A DNA stretch of 64,000 nt. Origin: Octopus vulgaris (taxonomy: Eukaryota). The stretch is from contig OX597814.1 in assembly GCA_951406725.2 (NCBI GenBank), forward strand, positions 35,402,001-35,466,000, read 5' to 3'. Shown here piece after piece: positions 5,191 through 63,146 of this stretch. Below the pieces are notes generated by a model. It did no database searches, was not told the DNA's origin, and worked only from the letters and a program-made list of their open reading frames with translations. The number at the start of each line of letters is the position of its first letter. Position 1 is the stretch's first letter. The translations under genes and the position numbers were made by a program.

Positions 5191-6424
5191 ATGTGCAGTA
5201 TACTTCTGACTTCTTAAATTATCTTCTAAAAGTCTGCACCATCAAAGTGATGTATTTTACTTTTGAAGAGATAGTGTTATTTATCTTTAAAGTAATCCTG
5301 CATTGGTCTTTGAATCACTTCTTTTGTTTCCCTGCTAGAAACTATGGTTGAATGTGGTATAGATGATCTTAAGCTGAAAATATGACAAAGATTGTATATA
5401 GTTAAACTATGCATATGTACATGCATACACACACATGTGCACACACATGTGCACACACATGCACACACACAAATATATACAATATATTTATATATGTATA
5501 GATAATGATTTGAGTTAGGCAGAATGTGTATTGCAAAACTATGTATACATTTATATGTGTCAATGTGAAAGAGAGCGAGAGAGAGAGCGAGAGAGAGAAT
5601 GAGTGAGTGAGTGAATGAGAGAGAGAGAGAGTATACATGTGTATGCTAGTGCATTTGCTTACCCTTGCTGCTTGCTATTCAAAAGTTACAATGCGCACAT
5701 GATGCTCTCTTGGCATTTCTCCTGCCAGTAGAGTGTGTGGTCACTTCATACCTTTAAAGCCTGTAAAATGAAAGATTTGAGAGTCTCTATACTTGAAACA
5801 GGTAAGGATTAGCATCAGGGAGAGCATCCAGCTGTAAAACAACACCTCAACAGCATATTCATATAAACCCCATGTCAGAATAATAAAATGGGTATAAAAT
5901 ATATAAGAATAAAAAATACATTAGTACAAGGCTACAAAATTTATCACGAAGGGGAGTAATTGTAATACATTGGTATATTACTAGTATATATTTTAGTATA
6001 TGTTTTATTGACTTCAGTTGGATGAAAGGCAAAGATGACCTCTAATAGAGAAGAATAGAGAATGTAGGATGAGGAAACAACATACACCTTATTATTTCAG
6101 TCACTTCAATAAGCTATCGTTTCTATTCAAATAATATAGATGAAACAGGAATAAACATTGAAAGAACTGCACAAATAGACAATAAAGATGTTTAACTTGC
6201 ATGTTTTAATTGTTGTTGTTAAAAGGATTATTGTTACTGGCATTGCTGTTTTTGCTATTGTTGTTGTAACTAAATATTGATTCATCTGCTTGTTTTTAGT
6301 GTCATTATCAATAGTATACACAGTTTGATGTGCCAAAAGCAAGCCGATGCTGATTTCTTTTGATTTTTCCATCTCAAATTATGTCAAAGAAAATGGTTTT
6401 GTGTGCTAATATATGAAAGAAAGC

Positions 6425-14612: not shown

Positions 14613-15636
14613 TTATGTGTTCATATCTAAGGGCAGTTGGTATTTTTCAATATACATAGTCTCTTTATTTAACTGCTGTTGTGCAAAAGTTGTTTCATTG
14701 CATCAGTAGATAGGGAAAAAATGAAAAGTTCAGTTGGAGATTCCTTGTATATCTCTTTGTGTGTTTGTTTAATGGTATTTGTCTATATGCTGGAAATGGC
14801 TTTGTTCCTTATGTAGTGTTGTTCTCCATTAGAAACATTTTTGTTTGACCTGTATAGTTGTGTCCACAACCTGAACAAGCTATGACATAGATTAAGTTTT
14901 CAGACACACAGGTAAATCAGTCATAATTTTGAATCGTTGTCCTTGTTTAAAGTGGAATTCTGAGCCTTCTTTTCGGTTGGGATCTGTTCCACAGTTCGAT
15001 CCCCTGCATCTTTAACTCTTGGTTCCATTGTTGCTGAGTATAATTTCAGACCTGTCAGCATTTTCTTCAGTGATTTTGGTTGATTTAAAAAATTTTTGAT
15101 GAATTTGTGTGTGCCTTGAATTTGGTTCTTAGGGCCCCTAGTGAGCATAGGTAAATTTTGAATAATAATGTTATATGCCTCATTGTTTCTAGGGTTGTGG
15201 GTAGAAATATACGTAGCATTTTAAAATTGGTTGCATTTCATTTTATTTTCCTTAGTGTTTGGATGTCTCTTCAAATATTTTATCCAATCATCAATTAGTG
15301 AAGGCGGATGATGTCTGGTTTTAATTTCATGAAGTCATAGGAATTTGCATCAGACACTATTGTCAAAATCTTTTTCACTAAATTCAAAAGGATATTTATT
15401 TTAACGTGTTTCAGGTAGCATGAATTAAATTATAAGTATTGCTTCAACTCTGGATTATAATAGATGTCTGTTTATCAATTTGGTTATTGACTGTCTTTTT
15501 ATTAAAATATCAAGAACGGAAGTTTCTTTTTACTGCATTCTATTGTAAATTAGATGTCAGTACTTATACCATTGAGCACTGTTTTAAATTCAAATAATTT
15601 ATCAATACTTTCATTGAAAAAGATAAAGCAGTCATA
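14613..15636 (-). pseudogene. Decayed PLE (Neptune-like) RT C-terminus plus GIY-YIG endonuclease
   Basis: DCFIF...LPFL-DILI...TDIYY...STHNPRN...QPKSLKKMLT...FTCVSENLIYVIACSGCGHNYTGQT. Confidence 0.85.
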
Positions 15637-17410: not shown

Positions 17411-20400
17411 CAGTGGCGTGCGGTGACTTCCGGCGTTGGGCATGCAATTAATTTCATTGCCCCCCCCCCGGCAATTTTTCAGTAAAACATTTTCGTATTC
17501 CTACGATTTACATATAAGAGATTCTGAATATGCAGAATAAACAGGGAATAAAAAATGGCTGTGCAGAGATGATCCTGAAATAAGTGTATTGTTTGTATTA
17601 TTCTTTGCTCTTCGAAACGTCAGTACTTTCCCATCCTCATTCTCCCTTAGAAAAGTCTAAAAATCATAAGTGAAATGTAATAAAGATGAAATTGGATTCT
17701 GTCAATATTTTTGCATATTCAGAATCTCTGTTAAAGGTAGGAATCCGAAAAAAAATTTGCACATAAATTCGTTTTTCGAAGGGGTGCGATTCTGCATTAG
17801 CCCCTATACCTATCGGTTGAGCTGAATGAAATGATTTAATTAAAAGAACACATTTAGTTACATTATATGGCCATGGTTTTAGATCGTTACGCTCTCGAAG
17901 ACAAGTCAGGTTCTTTATCATGCTACTTGTCAATTCCGGGAAAATTATTGACTGTTCTGAGACTTACTGAACTCCATACATTAAAGGACTACGTCTCACG
18001 CACAAACATTGAAAATACACGCATATACATGAATACGCACACAATGAAAGACAGCGAAAATTCAACATTGTAAAAAGCCTCCCAAAACTGTTGTGGCAGA
18101 AGTCAACATCTCTGAGATTGAAACAAGACACTTATTGAAAGTGAAACAAAACACTTATTTACGGCCGTAAATAGACTACACCCAGCAGCACAGAAAGGGA
18201 AATCTATGTAGGTAGGTTTCACGAAGAAATCAAAACATTTCTCCTGCGAAACAATACTGATGTAAGAAGGTCGAACCTTACGTTATAACAAACACTAAGC
18301 AAAACCTGTAATATATGCTCTTTAATATATATTTTTTTTAATGTTTTAAAATGTTACTTAGCTCATTTATAAATTAATTCAATTCTTCGATCTTTCTGGG
18401 CAAATATATCTATCACATTTTCATAGAAATCTTCTCTTTTCATCAATTCTTGTAATAAATCTTTTTCAATTGACATTAGTGCTAACCCAGACAGTCTTCT
18501 TTCTCCTGTCGCATTTCTTTGGTATGTTTTAATTCTACTTAATGCAGAAAAGGATCGCTCTACAGAAGCAGTGGTAGACGGAATTGTCAAAATCAACTTG
18601 CACAGATTGAAGAGTTCTGGCATAGCTTCAACAAGATCAGTGCTGTTAATGTAACTCATTAAATGACTTACACTTGGTTTTTTAAAATCTTTCATTGAAT
18701 ACATCACATTGAGCTCACTTTGTAATCGTATTACATCAAAAAATCTGCCATAAGTTGTTCTTAAAGAATCTAAAGAGTCCACAGGAAATTGTTTGCAATA
18801 CTCATCAACTTTGTTGAAATTCAAAAGTTCCATGAATTTAAACTCTTCTAAGGATGAATATCGTGCTTTTATTTGGTCAACTATTGTACTTATAATTTTG
18901 TTATAAAGCGTTCTATAATGTCGTTGGGGATCAATAGATATATTCTTGGATCTCTGAATTCCGATTCCTGCATCGACTCCATATTTTTCCCCTAACCTAT
19001 CATAAAAGACTGAAAAATTATCAAGTTTGTTTTCGAGTACAGTTCTAGTTTTATCTATTTGCTGTTTACAATACACTATGTCATGACTTTTACTCTGGAG
19101 TATGTTAAATAAGACGTCAGTAAAAGAAAAAATGTCACTGAATACCTCTAACAAAAATAAGAAATCAGGAGCTTTTAAAGTGTGTAAGAATCCAATTGCT
19201 GAATTTATGGTGGTCTCATCCCATGCTTCAGGATTTTCAATGATGTGTTCAAAAAGGCTGATTATGAAATTATAATTTTCCTTTGTGGTAATAATAAGAC
19301 GTGAGGAGTAATTCCATCTAGTTGCTGTTGCTTTCGGAAATCTTTTTTTAACAATATTATCTAATGCATTAGTCCTTTTCGGTGATTTCGTAAAAAATGT
19401 ACCGAGTCCATTTATTGTAGAAAAAAATATCTTGCATTCTTTCATAGCAGAGCATGATTGTGAAAGAACTAAATTTAGGATATGGGCACAACAATGAATA
19501 AAGATCGCACATTCATATTTCTTTCTTACTTTTGCCTGTAACCCATTTAGTTGTCCTGCCATTGTAGCGGCACCATCATATGTCTGCGCAATCAATTTGT
19601 TTCCACATTCCCACGTCTCAATGCATTTAAAAACATGTTCAGATAAAGCATTTGCAGATCGATCTGCACTAACATCACTAAAACCGATAAATCATTCTTT
19701 TGTCACACAGTCTTCTGTAACATAACGTAAAACTGTTGACAGTTGTGAAGATGCTGAGACATCAGATGTCTCATCAACAAGAATAGAAACATACTTAGCT
19801 TGGTCAATTTCCTTCTGCATCTCATTCAACATAACTTTATGAATTGCTTCGATCAAGTCATTTTGAATTCTGTTCGACAGACCAGTGAAGATAGAAGCTG
19901 TATCTAAATGACTTTCCATTTGTTTGTCATACTTACTGATCAAATAAACGAGTTCTCTATAATTTCCCCGATTATTAGAGCCTTCAGATTCAAAATGACC
20001 CCGAAACGATAATTCCTGGAGGCCTAAAAAAATAACAACATCGATCAATCGTTGCAGAATGGATCTGTTTCGTCGAACTTTCTCATTATGCTGTTGTATG
20101 CTTTGATTTTTACGTGCATCTAATTGTAAGTCTATGCGAACATTCCCGAATATTTTAAGGTCTATCAAACATTTTATATGCCTTTGAGAACGCTCGTGCT
20201 TTAGCATAGCCATATGTAAATTATTTAAATCATCATAGCCTTTATCATTCCAAACATTTTTTTCTAAGCCAAAAAGTAAACACGGCCAACAGAATAATTT
20301 ATTAAGAGCAACACTTCCAGTTAACCATTTCTTCTTTTCATACGAATTAACCTGAAATTGTCTCGTGAATTTCTTGTTGTAGCTTCGCAAATTAGGTAAA

Positions 20401-21203
20401 TTCGGTGTTGGTCTCCCGCGATTTATAATTAATTTTTTCCCATCGAAGTCCCTTTTAGAAAAACTAGTTCTCAAAATATCGTTTATAGCACACATTTCAC
20501 TCATTTTAAAAAAGGCTGCTCTTATTTAAGGACCTACGTGGAAGCGCCGGCGTAAATTTTAAGTCAATTTCAACAAAACGGAAAAATACCCTTTGTTAAA
20601 TTAATTTAAGATTAATTAGCTCTTTCTGAAATAAGAAATATAATGTAGATATTTTTGCTTTCAAAACTTTCTAAAAATATGATAGTGCAAACGGATGTTT
20701 TGGATAAAAAATTTCAAACTTACATGCGAAGGCTAATCCAACATTTCAGCTGGCTAAAACAAGAATTATGGGACGGCTCTTGTTCCGGTCAAAATAGCCA
20801 GAGAGCGTGATATGCGATCTAAGCACAGCATGACAAGCCAAACTGAATTTGTCGAATCGCTGAGAGAGAAGGGGGTGACCATTCCTCGTAGTATATCTTT
20901 TAAACAAAGAAAGAGGGAGAAGGGACAAACTATCAAAGACAGAGAGAAGGGACTCATGCTGTCTTCCCAACGCATGACAAGCGATAAATTTATCGAGTCA
21001 CTAAGATAGAGAGAGAGAGAGAGGAAGGAAGGACAAACTAATACAGACAGAGAGGGAGTGTGTATCATGCGATCTTCTAAAAGTATTTATCAAAGCAGAT
21101 GTACGAAGTGGAGACAATATTTCTAAAACAACTGGACGTATTTTCTTTGAAACAAGGAAGGCATGCAGCGCATACCTTGCATTGCTGAGAGTGCACGCCC
21201 CTG
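17411..21203 (-). mobile_element. Full-length hAT DNA transposon (Tip100/ZMYM1-like), 3793 bp
   Basis: Imperfect TIRs CAGTGGCGTGC / CAGGGGCGTGC; exact 8-bp TSD GTGCATAT at 17403-17410 and 21204-21211; internal transposase. Confidence 0.95.
18363..20504 (-). pseudogene. hAT transposase (~713 codons) with one in-frame TGA at 19692-19694
   Basis: The two track ORFs are in the same frame, separated by 32 open codons. Motifs: LFCWPC...H...H zinc finger, FRGH, VDETSD, YDGAATMAG, HCCAHILNL, TRW, SVERSFSAL (hAT dimerization region). Confidence 0.92.
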
Positions 21204-25889: not shown

Positions 25890-26365
25890 TTATAAATCTA
25901 ATATTCTCCTATCCTTCCTTAATACCGGTTCCCATATGCTGTTCATATCTGCACTTGGTCTGCCTAAGAGGTCGTTGTGTCCTAACATATGTGCTGCTTC
26001 TTTTAGCTTTTGTATTTTCCAGTGGTGTTCTCTGTATATTATTTTAACTTCATCCCACAGGGAGAGGTGGTCTCCGTTTTTCCATACACGATCAGCTATA
26101 CCCGATTTATCAATATCTCACTGATGTTCCTCTATCTTTATTTTGAGGGGGCAGCATGTTTCGACTTTGTATAACCTACCACAGCTGCATGGGATGGAGT
26201 ACATGTAGTTCTTAGTCATATTCTCTTCTATTAGTGGTTTTACTTGAAGGAGGTATTTGCGAAGTATTGTATTAATTTTGAATACTGTCCTGATGTCATA
26301 TGGGATGCATATCTTTTGTAACTTTTCAGAGAGGCCTTTCACATAAGGTAGACAGACTGTGGACA
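25890..26365 (-). pseudogene. PLE GIY-YIG endonuclease remnant
   Basis: KGLSEKLQKIC...MYSIPCSCGRLYKVET..PLKIKIEEH...SGIADRVW...WDEVKII..EHHWK..KLKEA. Confidence 0.85.
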
Positions 26366-26454
26366 GTTTATTGGTTTCATCCCCTCTTTTCTTCCTAATT
26401 GGAGTGGAGAGTATGCTTTTGGGGTATTTCTAAATGTGAGTAGCTATGCAGCAC

Positions 26455-32127: not shown

Positions 32128-32491
32128 CCGCAAATGCAAGACACAGTCTATATAGTAAATATCCATGGAAATAAGCTACCACCAGCAGGCTGCATACCCA
32201 ATGCATTACACACACAGTGCACAATACCAACACTAATACAACAAAAGACTTAAAAGAAAGAAACTGATGCAATACAATACCGGAAAGAGATTGTACAGTT
32301 CCAACAACAAAAAAGAACACACAAAGCTGTGCACACCCCAGTAACAGAGACGTATAGCAGGTGATGGAGTAGAAATTTGTCTGAAACTACCAAATGTTGA
32401 ACAACAACAACAATATTATATAACAGCATTATTATATAATATTGTATAACAACATTATTATGTAATATAATAATAATAATGATATATAATG

Positions 32492-32825
32492 CAATTACAG
32501 CATGGAAGGTGTTTATAAACCATTTAAAAACACAAAAACCGTTAGATTCACTTCAATACTTAAATTTAATTTGTCAAAATATATTCGTTGCTTAGAAACC
32601 GCAACCTGTTCACTGACAAAATTCTGTGCTGCATCTCTTTTCTCAGTGAACAGGTCGCGGTTTCAAAGCAACGAATATGTTTTAACAAATTGAATTTAAA
32701 TGTTGAAGTGAATCTAATAGTTTTGTGAGTTTTTAAATGGTTTATAAACACCTTCCATGCTGCAATTGTTTTTGTTTAAGCACACGATTTCAGATCAGGT
32801 CACTTGCTATGTGAGTACATCTCCA
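32492..32825. mobile_element. Fold-back (arms 32492-32615 and 32643-32768) with G3-C8 hammerhead-like motifs; probable PLE pseudo-LTR
   Basis: ~125-bp inverted arms, ~27-nt spacer and a one-sided tail. Motif: GTCA-GTGAACA-G-GTTGC..GCAAC-GAAT-ATAT-TT-TGAC. Confidence 0.75.
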
Positions 32826-33383
32826 TAATAATATATAATGCCCTGATGCAGTACCAGGCAGTGGCTCTCATGGCTTCTGGTCTTAACTTATCGGAAAGGT
32901 TATCATGTACATTGCTTTGTCTTGGTATAAAAGATGGGCTACAACAAATATTCTGCTCAATACCACAGACTTGCTTGTCAGTTGTTTGATCTTAACCAGT
33001 TGAGCATGTCTTTTGGTGTCTGATGATATGTGCATCTCTGATCATGAGCAGAAGTAGCAGCGAAGTATCATAGCCATGTGTTGAGAGGAATTCTTTGGGG
33101 TTTGGATAATTCACCTTTGGAAACATCCTTAAACATCCCTTATTCAGGAACCTTTTGAGTGGGGTGGGCTACTCAACATGAAGAAAATTCTAACTGCGCC
33201 CTACCTACAAGGTCATGCACTGTTTACCTTGATATGAGATCACGATGTCGTACATATGGTTGTGATGTATGTGCTTGGTGAACCATTATCAGTCATGATG
33301 AGTATACTAGACTTTGTATATTTTACCCCAGTGTTACTTTGATGGCATGCACTGCTCTCTCACTCAATAATAATAATTCTAAT

Positions 33384-41101: not shown

Positions 41102-41899
41102 GGCCATCAGCCGAGGAAGCCTCACTTGACCTTGACTCCATATTTTGTTTTTGAAAATTGTCAGTTTGCTCCAGAAAATAGTAGTGCTTTCCTGTCATTT
41201 TCAACCAGGGTAGAGAATAAAGGATTCTTCTTCTGCTGGTGAGTTCCTTTTTTTGTTAAATATCCCTCTATTTCTTGGGGGACTTATCTAATTTATTCCA
41301 TTTATTATTTCACGTGGAAAAATTTTGAATTTTTGCTCAATGGCAGCAACAAATAGTTTCGAGGAAGTTTCAGTCATTGATGAGAAAGGGGGAGAGACAG
41401 AGAGGTGCCTTGTCACAAAAATGAGAGAAGGTAACATTTCTTCGCAAAACAAGATGACCATCTCAGTCGCAAACAACAACTCTGACATCACTGCCACCAT
41501 CACCTCAGCCATGACCACTACAAGCAACAAGAACAGCAATAGTAGCAGTAACAATAACAACAACAGTAAAGCTTTGAAGAGAGAGAAAAATAAGTAGTAC
41601 AGCTATAATATAAATGATTTCCCTCCATTAGCAAGTAGCTTGACTACTTCGGTCAACAATATGAACATCGCCACAACAATAGTGTTGCTTTGGCTCCGAC
41701 TAACAGTAACAATGAGAGGAACAACATCAGCAATAAAAACGATATAGTCAACACCAACAATAATAGCAACCATAGAAACAACTCCTTTGCAGGAGTAACA
41801 AAACTGCAGTAGCAAATTTCCCTGGAAGGAAAACATGTTTACCTGGGTGAAGCAGAAAAACTCCTCAATAGAAGGGATAGGAAAACCAAGCCTGCTATC

Positions 41900-43400
41900 C
41901 CTTCAAATTTGATGAAGATGGCCAAAAGGACTATAGTATACAGATGTGTGTCACTAAAAACGAGGAAAATTTTCAAAGTGCTATACATCCAAGTAGAAAA
42001 ATGCTTGATGGACATTTGGACTCACACAAGGAAGACAATATGGTTCTGTGGGAGTGAGGTTACTAATGGAAGAACTGGTCCAGAAACACTCAATGGTCCA
42101 GTGCAAACACATGAATCTTCTCCTTCCCACATATCCTGGATGACAGGTGGTGAAAGTTAAAATATCAGATGTACCACCAGAATTAGACATTTGGTGGTTG
42201 GTTGCATGCGCTGTGGTGGAAGACCTCGATTTGCTTCTAGAAATTAAAAAATATTGGAAAGAGAACTGGTCCGGAATTGGGTTGGAATTTTTGATCCAGG
42301 TAAAACTGGAATCCCTGAATAAGGTCCCTGACCTTATAGAGCTGCCCAACGGAGCTCAATTCCAGGTTGTAGTGGAAAACAGAAAGCCAAAGTGCCACAC
42401 TTGTGGGTATAACCCACATTAGAAGGTCCTCTGCCCATAACAACAACAAAATGGAGCTCAAAGAATGGCGGTTCTGCTACCACCACCAGGTTGATAAGAA
42501 CTGGGATGAGATAGCGAATGGAGTGGTCAGTCTTACCCAGAAATAGGCTGAGAGGAAGCTGTCCCTGAAAATGGTTACATCACCTCCGTTATCATTTATT
42601 ATCTGACTGTTATGCCGTGTTCTGGTTACTGCTTGACCAGGTTGGAGCATCTCTTATTTAAATTCTTGAGGAAGGGATGTGTTTCAATGGTTAGTCTGTT
42701 ACCAGCATCCTCTGAATGGCAGATTAGGTATGCTGTGGCTCTTATGTGCAGACATGCACTTAGGTTATGCTACCTGCAACGATTTCTGCACAGTGAGCGT
42801 TTGTGCGCTCCGTTTGCAAGGCTCATCTTTCCTCAGCTTGTCTCCTTGACGGAACTGCAATCCTTGGTGAAGAAAAGATCAAGACTGGGTGCCTGGCACC
42901 TAGAATGTCATCAGGCATTCATAGCCCTCTACCAGTTGGGTAATGGGATTGGCGGATGTTCTGCTTTAAAAATTTATAGACGATTGGTCACGGGGAAGTC
43001 TGATGACATTCTCAAGGATACTCTGAGTGTGGATGAGAATAAACTGGCTAGTCTGTTCTGGAGGACTTTCCAGTAAGGAACTATTATAGATATTTTCCAG
43101 ATGTCCTTGGTCTGACAGTGCTATAGAGGGGTGCTACAAGTTCAAGAAAAACCCTATAGGTATGGATGTGCTCTCAGATGGTCTTGTCCGAGGTGTGTGC
43201 AGAGTGACAAAACCATTCTGCATGCCCTCTTTGAGTGTCCGGGTATTGCTGACATGTGGGGTTATATCGAATAGCTGCTATCATGTGTGGGATGACCGAG
43301 TCTCTAGTGACGATCGCCCAGCTGCCCTCCTTCAATTGGGCAGCCAAAGCAGTTTTCTTTTGCCTGCTGGCTGTGACTAAAGAAGATGTTTAGTGGACAA
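41900..43400 (+). pseudogene. Internally deleted Tx1/L1-clade LINE relic (ORF1 zinc knuckle plus ORF2 C-terminus)
   Basis: RKPKCHTCGYNPH*KVLC fits CX2CX4HX4C; downstream CPRCVQSDKTILHALFECPGIADMW fits the L1/Tx1 C-terminal CCHC. Confidence 0.75.
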
Positions 43401-45470: not shown

Positions 45471-46494
45471 GAAGGGAATTAAAGGAGAAGGGCTCTTGCC
45501 ATGTTGATCAAGCCCCCATGGTTTTTGTGAGTTTTTCCACGAGGATGTTAAAGTTTTAATTTATTTAATTTTTTATTGCTATGCTTTGTTTACATGCAGA
45601 AAACCTATTGTATCGTCCTGTTTTTGTCTTTTATTATTAAGACAGAATTGTTAGCATGCTCAGCCAAAACGCTTAGTGACATTTTATCCATCTTTATGTT
45701 CTGAGTTCAGATTCCACTGAGGTTGACTTTGCCTTTTGTCCTATCTGGGTCGATGAAATAAGTAACAGTTGAACATTAGGAGCCATTGTAATTGACTTAT
45801 CTCCTTCCCCAAAATTGCTGTCACCTTTCTCTTTGCCCTTTCCTGGATAATTCTCTGGAGTAAGGAAATAGATAAGAAGTGATTGGTAACCTCACTTACC
45901 CTTCCTCAAATACAAATGTGTGTGTATGTCACTATTGTATAATGCAATGCAGCTGATTCTAAGCAAGAGAGAGAGAGAGAGAGAGAGAAGAATCAAGCCC
46001 TAGACTTCATATATCGACCCTTCAAGGATGAATAACAAAATTGACATTCAGGGGATTTGAACTTATATTGTAAGAAGCCCTGAGAAATACAAGGCATTTT
46101 TCCAATTCTCTAACAATTCTGTTAATCGACCATTCTAGTCACTCAATTATTATACAATGCCAATAATAAGTGAGTTAAGGCCTTGTATCTATGTGAGAAA
46201 TCAATATGTCAGTTGAAAGAGTGACTTATTTATGACAGACTAGAGATATATCAAAGAATAATATTGGTTTCTTTCAGTTAGATAAAAGGTCAATGATTTG
46301 AGTATATTTGAGTGAATAAATCTGAATACTATTATTATTATTATTATTATTATTAATGTCTCCCCACCATTTATAGTATACAGGCATCCCAATATGTTTG
46401 CAAAGCTAGTATTGTATTTTATGGGTCCCCTGTGGTAAACAAAAAAACAATTCTTCTTATTTATATATATATAAATAAAGCAATTATATATATA

Positions 46495-47905
46495 TATAAA
46501 GCAATTAAGGGTCTAAACACAGGGAAAGGCCCCGGTCTATCAGGAGTCACAACAGAGATGCTTAAAATATCTGGCGGTGTAGGCTATAGTCTTGTCACCT
46601 GTATAGTCAATCAGGTGATACATGAAGGAGTCATACTCAATGACTGGTATAGCAGTATCATAGTCAACTGCTACAAAGGTAAAAGTGAAGCATTAGATAG
46701 GAATAATTACAGAGGTATCAAATTGTGGGACCAGGTGATGAAAGCCATGGACAGGGCCATAGCCCAACTAATTAGGGAGAGAGTTAGTTTATACAAGATG
46801 CAGCTAGGGTTTGTACCACGGAGAAGCACCACTGATGTTATATTTCTAGTAAGACAGTTGCAGAAGAAATTCCTAGCCAAAGATAAACCTCTGTACTTGT
46901 CTTTCATTGACATGGAGAAAGCCTTCAACTATCTGGTGGTCAATGCAGAAACTAGGGGTAAATAAGTGGTTGGTGAGAGCTGTACAAGCCATGTACAGAG
47001 ATGCTGTTGGTAAAGTGAGGGTTGGCAACGAGTATAGTGAAGGATTCCAGGTAGAAGTTGGAGTGCACCAAGGATCAGTCCTCAGCCCTGTGTTTTTCAT
47101 CATAGTCCTCCTGGCAATAACAGAGGAATTCAAGACAAGCTGCCCCTGGGAGCTCCTCTATGCTGATGACCTTGCTCTAATAACTGAGTCACTACCAGAA
47201 CTAGAGGTACTTAGAGCAAATCTAGCAGAAACTAAAGTCTTAGTAGGAAGGCAGACAAATCATAAACCCCTCCAGATAGATGTCTCTCTCGATCTGCAGA
47301 AAAGGTGTAGGTAGAAACTCCATAAGATGTATCTGTTGTGAGCTGTGGACATAGAAGAGGTGCAGCAATATCAAAGGAAGGTTAACTGGGAAGCTAGTTT
47401 TTGTGTGTGGAAGATGCACAGGTACAATAAACACCAAAGATGTACAGAAAATAGATTCCATCACATGCTAGGGGGAAAACCAGAAGTATTTGATAGCTTC
47501 TGTTACCTAGGTGACTAAGTCAGTAGCAGGGTCTCACAGAAGCAATGACAAGTGACCAAGACCTTTGGAAATATGCTGTGCTTGAGAAGACCTGTGGAGT
47601 CAAGTGAAATTTTGATCGTGGCTGATGCCAGTGTTGCCTGACTGACACCTGTGCTGGTGGCACATAAAAAGAACCTTTCAAGCGTGGTCATTGCCAGTGT
47701 TGCCTGACTGGCTCCCATGCCAGTGATATATAAAAAGCACCAACTACATTCTCAGAATGGTTGTTATTAGGAAGGGCATCCAGCTGTAGAAACATTGCCA
47801 GAATAGTTTGGAGCCTGGTGCAGCCTCCTGACTTGCCAGTCCTCAGTCAAACCGTTCAACCCATGCCAGCATGGAAAGCAGACGTTAAACGATGGTGATG
47901 ATGAT
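46495..47905 (+). pseudogene. RTE-clade LINE fragment: reverse transcriptase plus 3' tail
   Basis: GKGPGLSG...NYRGIKL...QLGFVPRRSTTDVIF...FIDMEKAF...GVHQGSVLSP...LLYADDL; frameshifted; ends in (GAT)n. Confidence 0.92.
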
Positions 47906-48161: not shown

Positions 48162-49422
48162 CAGGTGTTGGACAAAATAATGGAAACATCTAGCATCATA
48201 ATTTTGAAATATCTATAAAACCATTAAACGCTTGTTTATTTTTATGTTTTTTTTATTTATTATTAGTGTTGCTTAAAACGTTTTGCTAAAATTGCTGTTT
48301 CTTTTCAGATATCATCAGAAAAAGGTAATTAAAATTCATTAAAATGACAGATCTAGCGGACTTTCAAAGAGGTCAAATTGTTGGTGCTCGTATGGCAGGT
48401 ACTAGTGTAATGAAAACAGCTGAAATGTTTGGTGTATCAAGAAGCATTGTCCCGAAAGTAATGACAACCTTTGAGAAAGAGGGAAAAACTTCCTCATTGA
48501 AACAAAACTCTGGAAGAAAACCAAAACTTTCAGATAGGGACCATTGGACTCTTATGCGAATTGTTAGAAAGGATCACAAAACTACAGCTCCCAAAATTAC
48601 TGCAAACCTTAATGACCATCTCAGTTATCCAGTTTCTGCAAAAACTGTTTGCTGGGAGCTGCAGAAAGCTGGATCTCACGGGAGGGCTGCAATCAGAAAA
48701 CCACTACTTTCAAAAACATACGCTGCAAAGTGTTTAGAGTTGAGTAAAAAAGTACAGAATTAGTCCCTAGAGCAGTGGAAGAATGTTATTTTCTTGGACG
48801 AATCATCTATTACCCTATTTCTGTCCACCATCTGAGTATATGTGTGGAGACAGCCAAAAGAATCATTTGACCCTGACTGCTTTCTTCCAACTGTTAAACA
48901 TGTCAGAGGATCTGTGATGATCTGGGGGGGCTATATCTTGGAAATCCACCAGCCCAATGACTTCCCTTCATGGCAAAATTAATAGTCATGACTATTTAAG
49001 CATTTTATCTGATCAAATTCATCCTATGGTCGTGGAACTGTTTCTGGAGGGAAAGACAATCTTTCAGGATGATAATGCACCAATTCACACAGCTACAGTT
49101 GTTACTGAATGGCACAAGGAACATTCTAGTGAAGTTGAACATCTTATTGGCCACCACAGTCCCCAGATCTCAATATTATTGAACATTTATGGTACGTTTT
49201 AGAAAAACAATTAAGGAGTCAATATCCTCCCATCATCACTACAAGAACTGGAGACTGTTTTAGCTGAAGAAGGACAAAAATTCTTTTGGAAACAATTCAA
49301 ACTTTGTATGAGTTCAAACCTTATAGAATTCAAGCTGTAATTACTGCCAAAGGCAGTCCTACCTCATGTTAAAATAAATTTGTTTGAAATATTAAGGTGT
49401 TTCCATTATTTTGTCCAATCCG
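48162..49422 (+). mobile_element. Tc1/mariner transposon, full length, with decayed transposase (48344-~49372)
   Basis: TIR core TTGGACAAAATAATGGAAACA at both ends and TA flanks; HTH region with GRKPKLS, then FLDES, FQDDNAPIH, SPDLNIIEH. Confidence 0.93.
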
Positions 49423-61413: not shown

Positions 61414-63146
61414 CTTATGCATTCCAAAACCAAGCTAGAGATTTTGACGCATGGGGTATCAAAAGATTCAGTACTATTTCCGCTACAAATTAAACTTAAT
61501 TTCCATTTGCATATTTGCATTTCAAAAATTTAACATAATCTTTTCCCTAAATCAACTATCACAAACATTTTATGCGATGACATCACATTTTCTATATGTG
61601 TGTGTACCTTAAAAGACATCAATCATCACAACACACAACTTCACTCACTCACTCACTCACTCTATCTCTCTTTCTTTCTCTCTCACACACACATGCATAA
61701 ACACACATGTCCATTTCATATACGTACATACATCTTTCACTTTCTCATCTCCTTCGCTTTCTTTCTCTGTCCTTTTTGCTTTCTCTTCTTTCAATTTCTG
61801 CTCTCTTCAAATAATTTTTTTATGGAATGAGCAAGAGAGCCACAAAATGAGCCACCACAGCAGAATGGTGTGTCTGTATGTGTTGGCTGACATAACGAAC
61901 AGCTGGAGGTGAAACTCTCGACAAAAAGCAATGAGGTGGCAAATGTGTATAAAAATTATTATTTAATACATGTTCTTAATATATATATATATATATTAAG
62001 AAATTTATCTACAATAATTATTGTGGCATTTACCGTTAAATTAGCAGTTCATACATGTGCTTCTATTTGGTTAATTTATGCTTCATACAAAAATAAAAAC
62101 ATACTACATACATACAACTGCTTACAAGATTAGGCATTAATGTTCATAATTTTATATTTACAATATTGAAAAAATATGCTACCAAAGAAAAGACGTAATC
62201 TCTCCAGAAACAAGTATAAAGCAAGGAGGATTGTAGAAAACCGAAGGCAAGAGTCTGAAAAGAGAAGCTAGATGAAATTTTCTCAAGATCAGCAAATGTA
62301 TGTTGCAGCACTTAATACTGGACCATTAAATCAATGTTTCAATGATTAGACAGAGGTTCAATAGAATAGCTCTCAGAAACAGACTACATACAAATTCATT
62401 CTTCACAACTCCTGAAGCTATTTTCAGATATGATCCATCCCATTCTTATAAAAATGATAACTTTGTCCAAATTGGTGTGCAAAACACTAATTGTCATTTC
62501 TGTAGAGCTTTAAAATTTTCATATGAAACAAATGGTATGTGCTGCTCAGGCACACTACCAGCTCCTTCTCAACCTCTTATGGATCTCCTAGAAGGTACTT
62601 CCATCCAGTCAATGGATTTTCTGAACAATATCAGACAATACAACTCTGCATTTCAAATGATATCATTTGGTGCATCTAAGAAGATAGTTAAACATGAATT
62701 TATGCTGACATCAAAGTTCAAAGGCAAGTCTATCACCTCATTGGTTCTCTGTTACCCACAAATGAACGACCACAGTTTCTCTAAATTTACTTTGTGAGTG
62801 ATGTAGGACAGAAAGCCCGAAGGAGGTGTTAAAATTTCAGAGGAAGGGTCGTATTAGACACAGCGCCGACTGCTGCAAAAGAGTATATCCACTGACAGCT
62901 TTGCGGTGCATATGAAAATCACGTAATACCCCCTCCCCCCAATTTTCCTTAACAGGTTATGGCCTGAAATACTCCATATGGATGCATAGTATGTTGCTTA
63001 GTCAAATTAGCGCATCATTTACTCCACAAATGTTTTGTCGTCAAAGCTGCACTTTCCCATATCTACTACTTCAACATAATTGTAATATATTATATACAAA
63101 CTATGCCATCATTTTAATCCCAAGCAATGCTGGGTATCTCTGCTAC

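Follow-up and report, generated by a model that had tools for sequence, protein, structure and literature searches.

The base pair formed by positions 3 and 8 of the hammerhead ribozyme positions its general acid. According to the cited sections of Cervera and de la Peña (2014; PMC4209133), the minimal hammerheads of PLEs are marked by an extra base after A9, a G10.1-C11.1 pair and a palindromic 15.2-16.2 segment. Natural hammerheads with a U3-A8 pair have been published (PMC3088659; Cercyon of Schistosoma mansoni, PMC4209133), whereas G3-C8 is described as an engineered state: the double change C3G/G8C partly restores cleavage in hammerheads generally and, in the cited part of the report on Poseidon PAc from Anolis carolinensis (Frangieh 2024, PMC11167929), also in the hammerhead of this anole PLE. 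A search of open-licence literature text, with figures and gapped alignments outside its scope, found no natural G3-C8 hammerhead. The supplements of Perreault (2011) gave no match to ungapped core words, but this result is uninformative, since the U3-A8 word was absent as well. As far as the literature search reached, a natural G3-C8 pair fixed in thousands of copies, and in an autonomous family, is new; what is an engineered mutant in PAc (PMC11167929) is the natural, fixed state in the family described here.

The window analysed is a stretch of 64,000 nucleotides of Octopus vulgaris DNA (contig OX597814.1, positions 35,402,001 to 35,466,000, forward strand), and it holds one copy of the G3-C8 repeat. 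This copy is a head-to-head pair of pLTRs from an endonuclease-bearing PLE, in which one arm is tailed. The insertion spans positions 32493-32828, instead of the 32492-32825 given in the first-pass annotation, and is flanked by a 13-bp target-site duplication with one mismatch between its copies (32480..32492 and 32829..32841, read on the plus strand). It consists of two copies of a 208-nt pLTR unit. The short arm (32493..32637, minus strand) corresponds to unit positions 1 to about 147, has a tail-less 3' end and carries an extra G at 32637; it matches a natural monomer copy at 88.5% and both pLTRs of the complete element described below (locus L191) at 84%. The long arm (32638..32828, plus strand) corresponds to unit positions 17-208 and matches the same sequences at 85.9% and 84-85%, respectively. 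As 3'-end mapping indicated, its last 58 nt (32771..32828, plus strand) are the PLE 'tail', present in this arm only. The segment 32737..32828 (plus strand) contains the first 30 codons of the PLE ORF, which begin with MVYKHL, as compared to MAYKHL in the full element, and include a stop at codon 26. The two arms are complementary at 89-94%, and the whole insertion folds into a single long hairpin (z = -21.9).

The short arm contains a minimal type I hammerhead-like motif (32570..32620, minus strand) with a stem I of 7 bp, G3 at 32613, C8 at 32608, a stem II of 5 bp and U in place of A15.1; a cut is predicted between 32577 and 32576 on the minus strand. The second hammerhead-like motif, in the long arm (32639..32689, plus strand), has G3 at 32646 and the same change of A15.1 to U, and both its stem III palindrome and its stem I are damaged. 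The core strings quoted in the first-pass annotation (minus strand, 32573-32617; plus strand, 32643-32686) were found exactly as written, but the arms, which had been said to begin at the core, actually begin 17-24 nt upstream of it, at the 5' end of the repeat. A descriptor scan of both strands of the window gave four candidates with pairable positions 3 and 8, and the minus-strand arm was the only G-C one; the plus-strand arm failed the scan because its stem I has decayed. The window's own copy departs from the hammerhead core by U15.1 in both arms. Because this base abolishes the A15.1-U16.1 pair on both arms, and because the transcript buries the motif in a hairpin, the copy is probably dead, and by itself it is an ordinary dead insertion.

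Other elements were observed in the window. Two frames of 442 and 277 aa at 18363-20525 (minus strand) presumably resemble a hAT/ZBED-type transposase, and we take the sequences at 48329-48763 (minus strand) and 48921-49202 (plus strand) to be Tc1/mariner-like transposase fragments on opposite strands. Three further segments (46357-47314, 41813-43076 and 62330-62797, all on the plus strand) are assumed to be LINE-like RT fragments together with a Helitron-like fragment. Short, decayed PLE-like protein fragments at 14921-15220 and 26118-26429 (both minus strand) belong, by eye, to a different family.

A palindrome search of the genome returned 3,301 candidates. A motif pattern left open at positions 3, 7, 8 and 15.1 gave at least 3,086 genome matches, as compared to 0 for the reversed control, and among the first 100 matches listed G3 was present in 98, C8 in 96 and A15.1 in 97. 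In an alignment of 147 arms from 82 loci, which had been selected by similarity and from which 8 duplicate loci had been dropped, the corresponding counts were 120/124, 122/125 and 133/137; U15.1 was found in three aligned arms, two of them being those of the window. These aligned-arm and genome-pattern counts indicate that G3-C8 with GAAA is the family state and that GAAT is a minor variant (about 2%) within it. The first-pass annotation had pointed out GAAT in both arms as a sign that these copies may be inactive; this probably holds for the window copy, but not for the family. Its predicted consensus was borne out, the family majority reading GUGAACA-G...GAAAAUAUU both in the aligned arms and in the genome matches. 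Core positions 3-6, 8, 9 and 12-15.1 were intact in 100 of 124 arms, G10.1 was present in 117/126, C11.1 in 119/135 (CpG decay) and G9a in 126/126; stem III reads AAUAUU and the cut site UUU. Core conservation was 98.2%, against 96.1% elsewhere (non-CpG positions), but this difference was not used as evidence, since the loci had been picked by core similarity.

When the pattern was written with C3-G8, it gave 1 genome match, as compared to 3,086. This single copy (L131 1501-1535, G000:C18:35457848) was considered as a possible ancestor and rejected, because it belongs to an ordinary fold-back in which the opposite arm has G3-C8; on rough rates, chance would produce about 0.1 such double changes. 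As a separate observation, near-identical words of the repeat occur in sequencing runs labelled as five organisms.

When 90 loci were mapped on a natural monomer, a family unit of 208 nt emerged, with a sharp 5' end and with 3' ends that cluster at about 150 or at 208. Among 111 short loci, a sample biased toward fold-backs from which 9 duplicate loci had been dropped, 74 were head-to-head and 37 single-arm or otherwise arranged. After 13 loci that were duplicate or complex had been dropped, duplications of 9-15 nt were found to flank 30 of 77 insertions, as compared to 91 of 2,000 shuffled pairs (4.6%), and the targets are AT-rich, often (TA)n. Insertions that are short, palindromic, high-copy and duplication-flanked recall a MITE, that is, a non-autonomous DNA transposon, in which the hammerhead shape would be incidental. 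We rejected this reading, to which we give practically no credence: the unit is the terminal repeat plus the ORF start of an RT-GIY-YIG element, the arms are unequal and their centres vary, solo arms are common (the 37 loci that are single-arm or otherwise arranged), and neither symmetric terminal inverted repeats nor a fixed short duplication were found. The first-pass annotation had noted a MITE-like appearance, but leaned toward a PLE fold-back on account of the one-sided tail. This leaning is upheld by the linked RT-GIY-YIG ORF, the unequal arms and the solo copies, and the one-sided tail is the PLE tail. Target duplications, which together with symmetric inverted repeats had been named as the mark of a MITE, do exist; however, they vary between 9 and 15 bp as in PLEs, and the arms are asymmetric.

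Head-to-head pLTRs with an optional tail on one arm are also found in the Penelope elements of Adineta vaga, for which the cited sections of Arkhipova (2013, PMC3846280) describe palindromic junctions, 8-10 bp duplications, a pLTR with the first codons, and a TATA plus an Inr-like motif, similar to what is seen here; unlike in Adineta vaga, thousands of short solo or paired pLTRs are present in the octopus. Opposite-strand hammerhead pairs, 100-700 bp apart, appear in PMC4209133 too. Non-LTR retrozymes (bioRxiv 10.64898/2026.07.22.740005) likewise consist of short PLE-derived units that are non-coding and carry a type I hammerhead, but in the part of that text cited here they are defined as tandem arrays, whereas the present copies occur singly or head-to-head, with their start 61 nt ahead of the cut site. 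Among the 90 loci mapped, short units in direct tandem were absent, and in this respect the family does not correspond to a retrozyme, which has tandem hammerhead units.

The autonomous partner of the short copies is a pLTR-ORF-pLTR element that encodes a reverse transcriptase (RT) with a C-terminal GIY-YIG domain and has the G3-C8 motif in both pLTRs. The 208-nt unit ends inside an open frame, and 31 residues of this frame, compared with 1.84 billion proteins, gave two matches, one being a 167-aa protein that extends the frame. The ends of public contigs, from four sequencing runs of one of the five organisms of which three are presumed to be RNA runs, pointed to a common upstream sequence, through whose 490 exact genome copies an RT-GIY-YIG frame was located about 950 nt upstream. 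In locus L189 both protein ends are joined in one open frame of 1,025 codons. Locus L191 is a complete element, with units at 1220-1425 and 5481-5682 and G3-C8 motifs at 1242 and 5503; its ORF has the ATG at 1334 and the MAYKHL start in the first unit and the GIY-YIG end before the second unit, and the frame is interrupted. The linked PLE ORF that the first-pass annotation had proposed to look for is thus present in both loci. Fifteen further ORF loci were inspected: 10 adjoin a G3-C8 unit, 5 are without a core-bearing pLTR in the stretch examined, and none has C3-G8. An inverted, 5'-truncated copy adjoins the element in L163, L164, L167 and L189.

In the predicted protein of the element, the GIY-YIG domain was recognised by Pfam (E 1.6e-5, above the cut-off). 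The RT was recognised by its motifs, by a BLAST match to another PLE of the same genome (2e-9) and by a profile match to a solved RT (4e-6); Pfam RVT_1 gave no match to the element protein itself and was found in 3 of 34 homologues. Protein homologues number 102, two of which are named and come from sea cucumber and coral, and the closest named protein relative is a predicted protein of Octopus vulgaris. Metagenome relatives (2 loci, 41-46% identity) had no assignable pLTR in the last 560 bases, which were inspected.

The element has the traits of an EN+ PLE, namely a single RT plus GIY-YIG ORF, direct pLTRs that hold the ORF start, an optional tail at one end, and variable duplications of AT-rich targets. 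It shares with the Nematis and Neptune C-terminal EN+ PLEs (Craig 2021, PMC8557442) the C-terminal GIY-YIG, a CX3CxxC-type linker and (TA)n or AT-rich targets. By eye, in a comparison with the printed alignments, the linker with its short spacing resembles the Nematis rows of Fig. S2, but the element has DKS in place of DKG and an insert of about 70 residues between RT motifs A and B, which are absent from the canonical rows of Fig. S1 (PMC8557442). As in PAc, in the cited sections of PMC11167929, the ORF starts inside the pLTR and two RT start sites bound the tail. PAc also has AT-rich targets, an uncut RNA template, which we infer for the octopus element, and partial activity of C3G/G8C. However, the tail is 58 nt here and 30-40 in PAc, the ORF starts about 57 nt after the cut site here and within stem II in PAc, and the octopus protein, with its Zn-finger-like linker, is only a distant relative of that of PAc (PMC11167929).

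The family motif consists of a stem I of 7 bp, GUGAACA, an extra G, a stem II of 5 bp with G10.1-C11.1, GAA, the self-complementary AAUAUU, and U17. Stems I and II form the MFE fold in 3/3 natural copies; this fold also adds G3-U17 to stem I, which may represent an inactive state. At the family level, the hammerhead traits U4 G5 A6, A9, G12 A13 A14 and A15.1-U16.1 are present, together with a Watson-Crick 3-8 pair and a NUH site, but the literal C3 and G8 of CUGANGA are not, because the family has G3-C8. The Rfam hammerhead models gave no match for L191 1180-1450 at E 10, and no hammerhead was found among the 150 of 249 window matches listed. As in the minimal type I hammerheads of the cited sections of PMC4209133, the motif lies in both pLTRs, has the extra base after A9, the G10.1-C11.1 pair and a palindromic stem III, and is flanked by U-rich 5' and AU-rich 3' sequences. 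In contrast to those hammerheads, in which the 3-8 pair is C-G, or U-A in Cercyon of S. mansoni, the pair is G-C here, by reciprocal transversions, and the base at 9a is G instead of the H of the published consensus (PMC4209133). The stems of 7 and 5 bp also differ from the short helix I and long helix II of S. mansoni (PMC4209133).

A young and an old subfamily (32 and 35 of 101 full-length arms, respectively) differ at 12 positions, which include 5 of the 9 positions of loop II and 0 of the 42 of core and stems (p 0.06). Compensatory stem changes were not found among the arms compared, as the stems are invariant. The first-pass annotation had considered that a consensus that keeps GAAT and shows no stem covariation would speak against a ribozyme: the consensus is GAAA, but covariation of the stems is indeed lacking within this family, in which loop II has changed and the stems have not. 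We also considered a pseudoknot of the RNA 5' end with loop II, whose 4-5 bp seemed, by eye, to be maintained through wobble pairs in the different loop variants, but no test supported it.

Across families the 3-8 pair does covary, and U3-A8, C3-G8 and G3-C8 are all found in one genome. U3-A8 is present in 19 of 30 GIY-YIG loci of an abundant PLE of 781 aa (L121 2245-4587, G000:C16:20834500-20841500; also L097-L120), which has many intact frames and a minimal hammerhead, and which we take to be Neptune-like by its linker and DKG motifs. In L121, a separate frame of 359 aa lies upstream of it. This PLE was rejected as the partner of the short copies (20% identity, different pLTR, U3-A8 core); three of its loci match the core over 12 nt, which is incidental. 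A sister family (L198-L208, e.g. G000:C15:42992000-43000500) has a frame of 1,312 aa with a long asparagine-rich insert and a C-terminal part 51% identical to that of our element. Its motif, CUGAUGC-G, has C3-G8 in 13/13 motifs matched by a pattern open at 3 and 7-9, and C in place of A9. Because this nearest relative in the genome retains C3-G8, the swap to G3-C8 likely arose on the lineage of the element described here. In other PLE families, more hammerhead-like cores were seen by eye downstream of GIY-YIG (L094, L112, L107), among them C3-G8 with an insert and U3-A8 with an altered 3' strand. Another PLE type is represented by a long frame in L168 (4694-7501, plus strand) with an RT and a GIY-YIG-like end, whose GSSDSAQV motif resembles Hydra rows.

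The natural G3-C8 motif is likely still able to cleave itself weakly, and cleavage under suitable conditions appears reasonably probable. Three observations speak for activity: the 3-8 pair was retained through two transversions, core and stems are unchanged between the subfamilies, and the engineered C3G/G8C change partly restores cleavage in a PLE hammerhead and in hammerheads generally. Against activity stand the G at 9a, the G3-U17 pair of the MFE fold and the predicted cut after U17, which is a weak cleavage site. About 1% of the copies begin at the predicted cut site. The 5' ends at this site were compared with those at a control site at a distance of 3 nt, by a script that went through all 48 test and 96 control matches and counted the arms of one locus separately; no significant excess was found (19 vs. 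26 in the count of the script). After removal by eye of 9 rows that were point changes (1 test, 8 control), the counts were 18 vs. 18 (p 0.35), and in the young subfamily 11 vs. 6 (p 0.09). As an anecdotal observation, arms of the young copies L272/L273, L334 and L337/L338 start exactly at the predicted cut site; in two of these three loci, restarts of the same 11-12 nt are repeated. All of these copies could derive from cleaved RNA. In cofolding of two copies, another dimer (-36.5 kcal/mol) was preferred over the active-type dimer (-27.0) or two monomers (-29.0). If the ribozyme acts at all, its substrates would be long transcripts or tandem ones, with the self-complementary AAUAUU forming stem III between molecules.

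It may also be that, in the same element, the G3-C8 motif does not cleave and is a relic, or else has a structural role or binds a protein, the swap having been fixed by drift via a master lineage, with PLE transposition needing no cleavage. The 5' ends without an excess at the cut site fit this explanation, as do the U17 at the cut site, the C at position 9 of the sister family, and the GAAT copies, which still got inserted. The anole PLE, whose in vitro insertion is left unaffected by hammerhead mutants (PMC11167929), points in the same direction. However, drift is unlikely to produce two reciprocal transversions with the pair retained, the subfamilies have the remaining core bases and both stems in common while loop II is largely replaced, and a Watson-Crick 3-8 pair is kept in each of three families in one genome; we regard a non-cleaving motif as unlikely, while giving it real weight. 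In fact, a negative 5'-end test is expected even for a working PLE ribozyme, because the anole study found likewise: its cited sections report zero reads at the cut site and uncut RNA as the main template (PMC11167929). The anole ribozyme also needed protein. Taken together, we have high confidence that the window contains a dead head-to-head pLTR pair of an endonuclease-bearing PLE and that the family motif is a fixed G3-C8 minimal type I hammerhead, likely a weak self-cleaving RNA dependent on dimer formation or protein.

The short copies also bear on how the palindromes arise. They start with an extra G, whereas AGATG is preceded by C or T in the full element. Among the first 100 matches listed for one subfamily, in a search for G, C and A, the extra base was G in 81, C in 12 and A in 7. 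Upstream element DNA was absent from 24/24 G-copies, among 30 copies inspected; an exception from another set, L085, has both the G and upstream element DNA. TATATAT begins 30 nt above the A of (C/T)AGATG. For L1, an untemplated G at the 5' end has been published as a mark of cap copying, and the extra G found here is likely a copied RNA cap. The upstream DNA, with CTAAC, a pyrimidine tract and AG (490 exact copies), resembles a splice acceptor, so that the sharp 5' end might instead be a splice junction just before the hammerhead, as in Penelope of D. virilis, with the G as the end of a tiny first exon; indeed, the Penelope intron end maps to helix I in Cervera (2014, PMC4209133). The 24/24 copies, however, have no common exon sequence ahead of the G, a donor yielding GAG|ATG is not evident by eye, and the TATA spacing of -30 fits a start site, which makes a splice junction distinctly improbable.

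Starting from cap copying, the following route may be proposed. RNA polymerase II would start at the A of (C/T)AGATG, 30 nt below TATATAT, and would give a capped sense RNA that begins with the pLTR (~210 nt). The element's enzyme would nick AT-rich DNA on both strands, and reverse transcription would be primed inside the pLTR, as it is in PAc, in this case at unit position ~150 or ~208. Each cDNA would run only 150-208 nt to the cap, which would be copied as the extra G. Two cDNAs, one per nick, would join their RNA-5' ends by microhomology and yield a palindrome with a one-sided tail, and one such cDNA would give a solo pLTR. The templates would be mostly uncut, and cleavage would not be needed for the short copies.

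Of 70 one-tailed fold-backs, 54 have a short arm that ends at 143-157. The tailed arm has the G-bearing end in 20 of the 70, the short arm in 19, both arms in 2 and neither in 29; this split fits two priming events better than one fold-back. Self-priming, that is, fold-back of one cDNA or use of an antisense template, would have to derive the even centre orientation from later flipping between the arms. It is the published reading for rotifer PLEs (cited sections of PMC3846280), and it would account for the finding that the two arms belong to the same subfamily and have some private variants in common (19 rare variants, as compared to 287 confined to a single arm), including the GAAT of the window. 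On the other hand, tailed and short arms carry the complete G-bearing end at a ratio of 20:19, with 2 cases in which both do, and the stop of the short arm at the second initiation site (54/70) is not predicted by copying from cDNA. The extra 5' G, moreover, suggests a capped sense template here, in contrast to the antisense template proposed for Adineta vaga (PMC3846280). We consider self-priming a doubtful explanation, although one to be kept in mind, and prefer two primings on sense RNA.

The family provides a natural test of selection for cleavage in PLE hammerheads, with three families and three different 3-8 pairs in one genome. Since the G3-C8 motif is missed by Rfam and by CUGANGA descriptors, surveys may undercount such motifs. 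With the extra 5' G and an even split of arm ends, the origin of PLE inverted repeats, by antisense self-priming or by priming on sense RNA, becomes testable. We propose, tentatively and at somewhat less than even confidence, that a natural, catalytically active G3-C8 hammerhead is fixed in an autonomous PLE lineage beside the U3-A8 and C3-G8/C9 families, with wider implications. If this is true, PLE hammerhead cores would swap their 3-8 pair freely, surveys based on CUGANGA would have overlooked whole families, and some reports of 'hammerhead-less' PLEs would be descriptor artefacts. The DNA of this family would then also record PLE palindromes made by twin priming on capped sense RNA.
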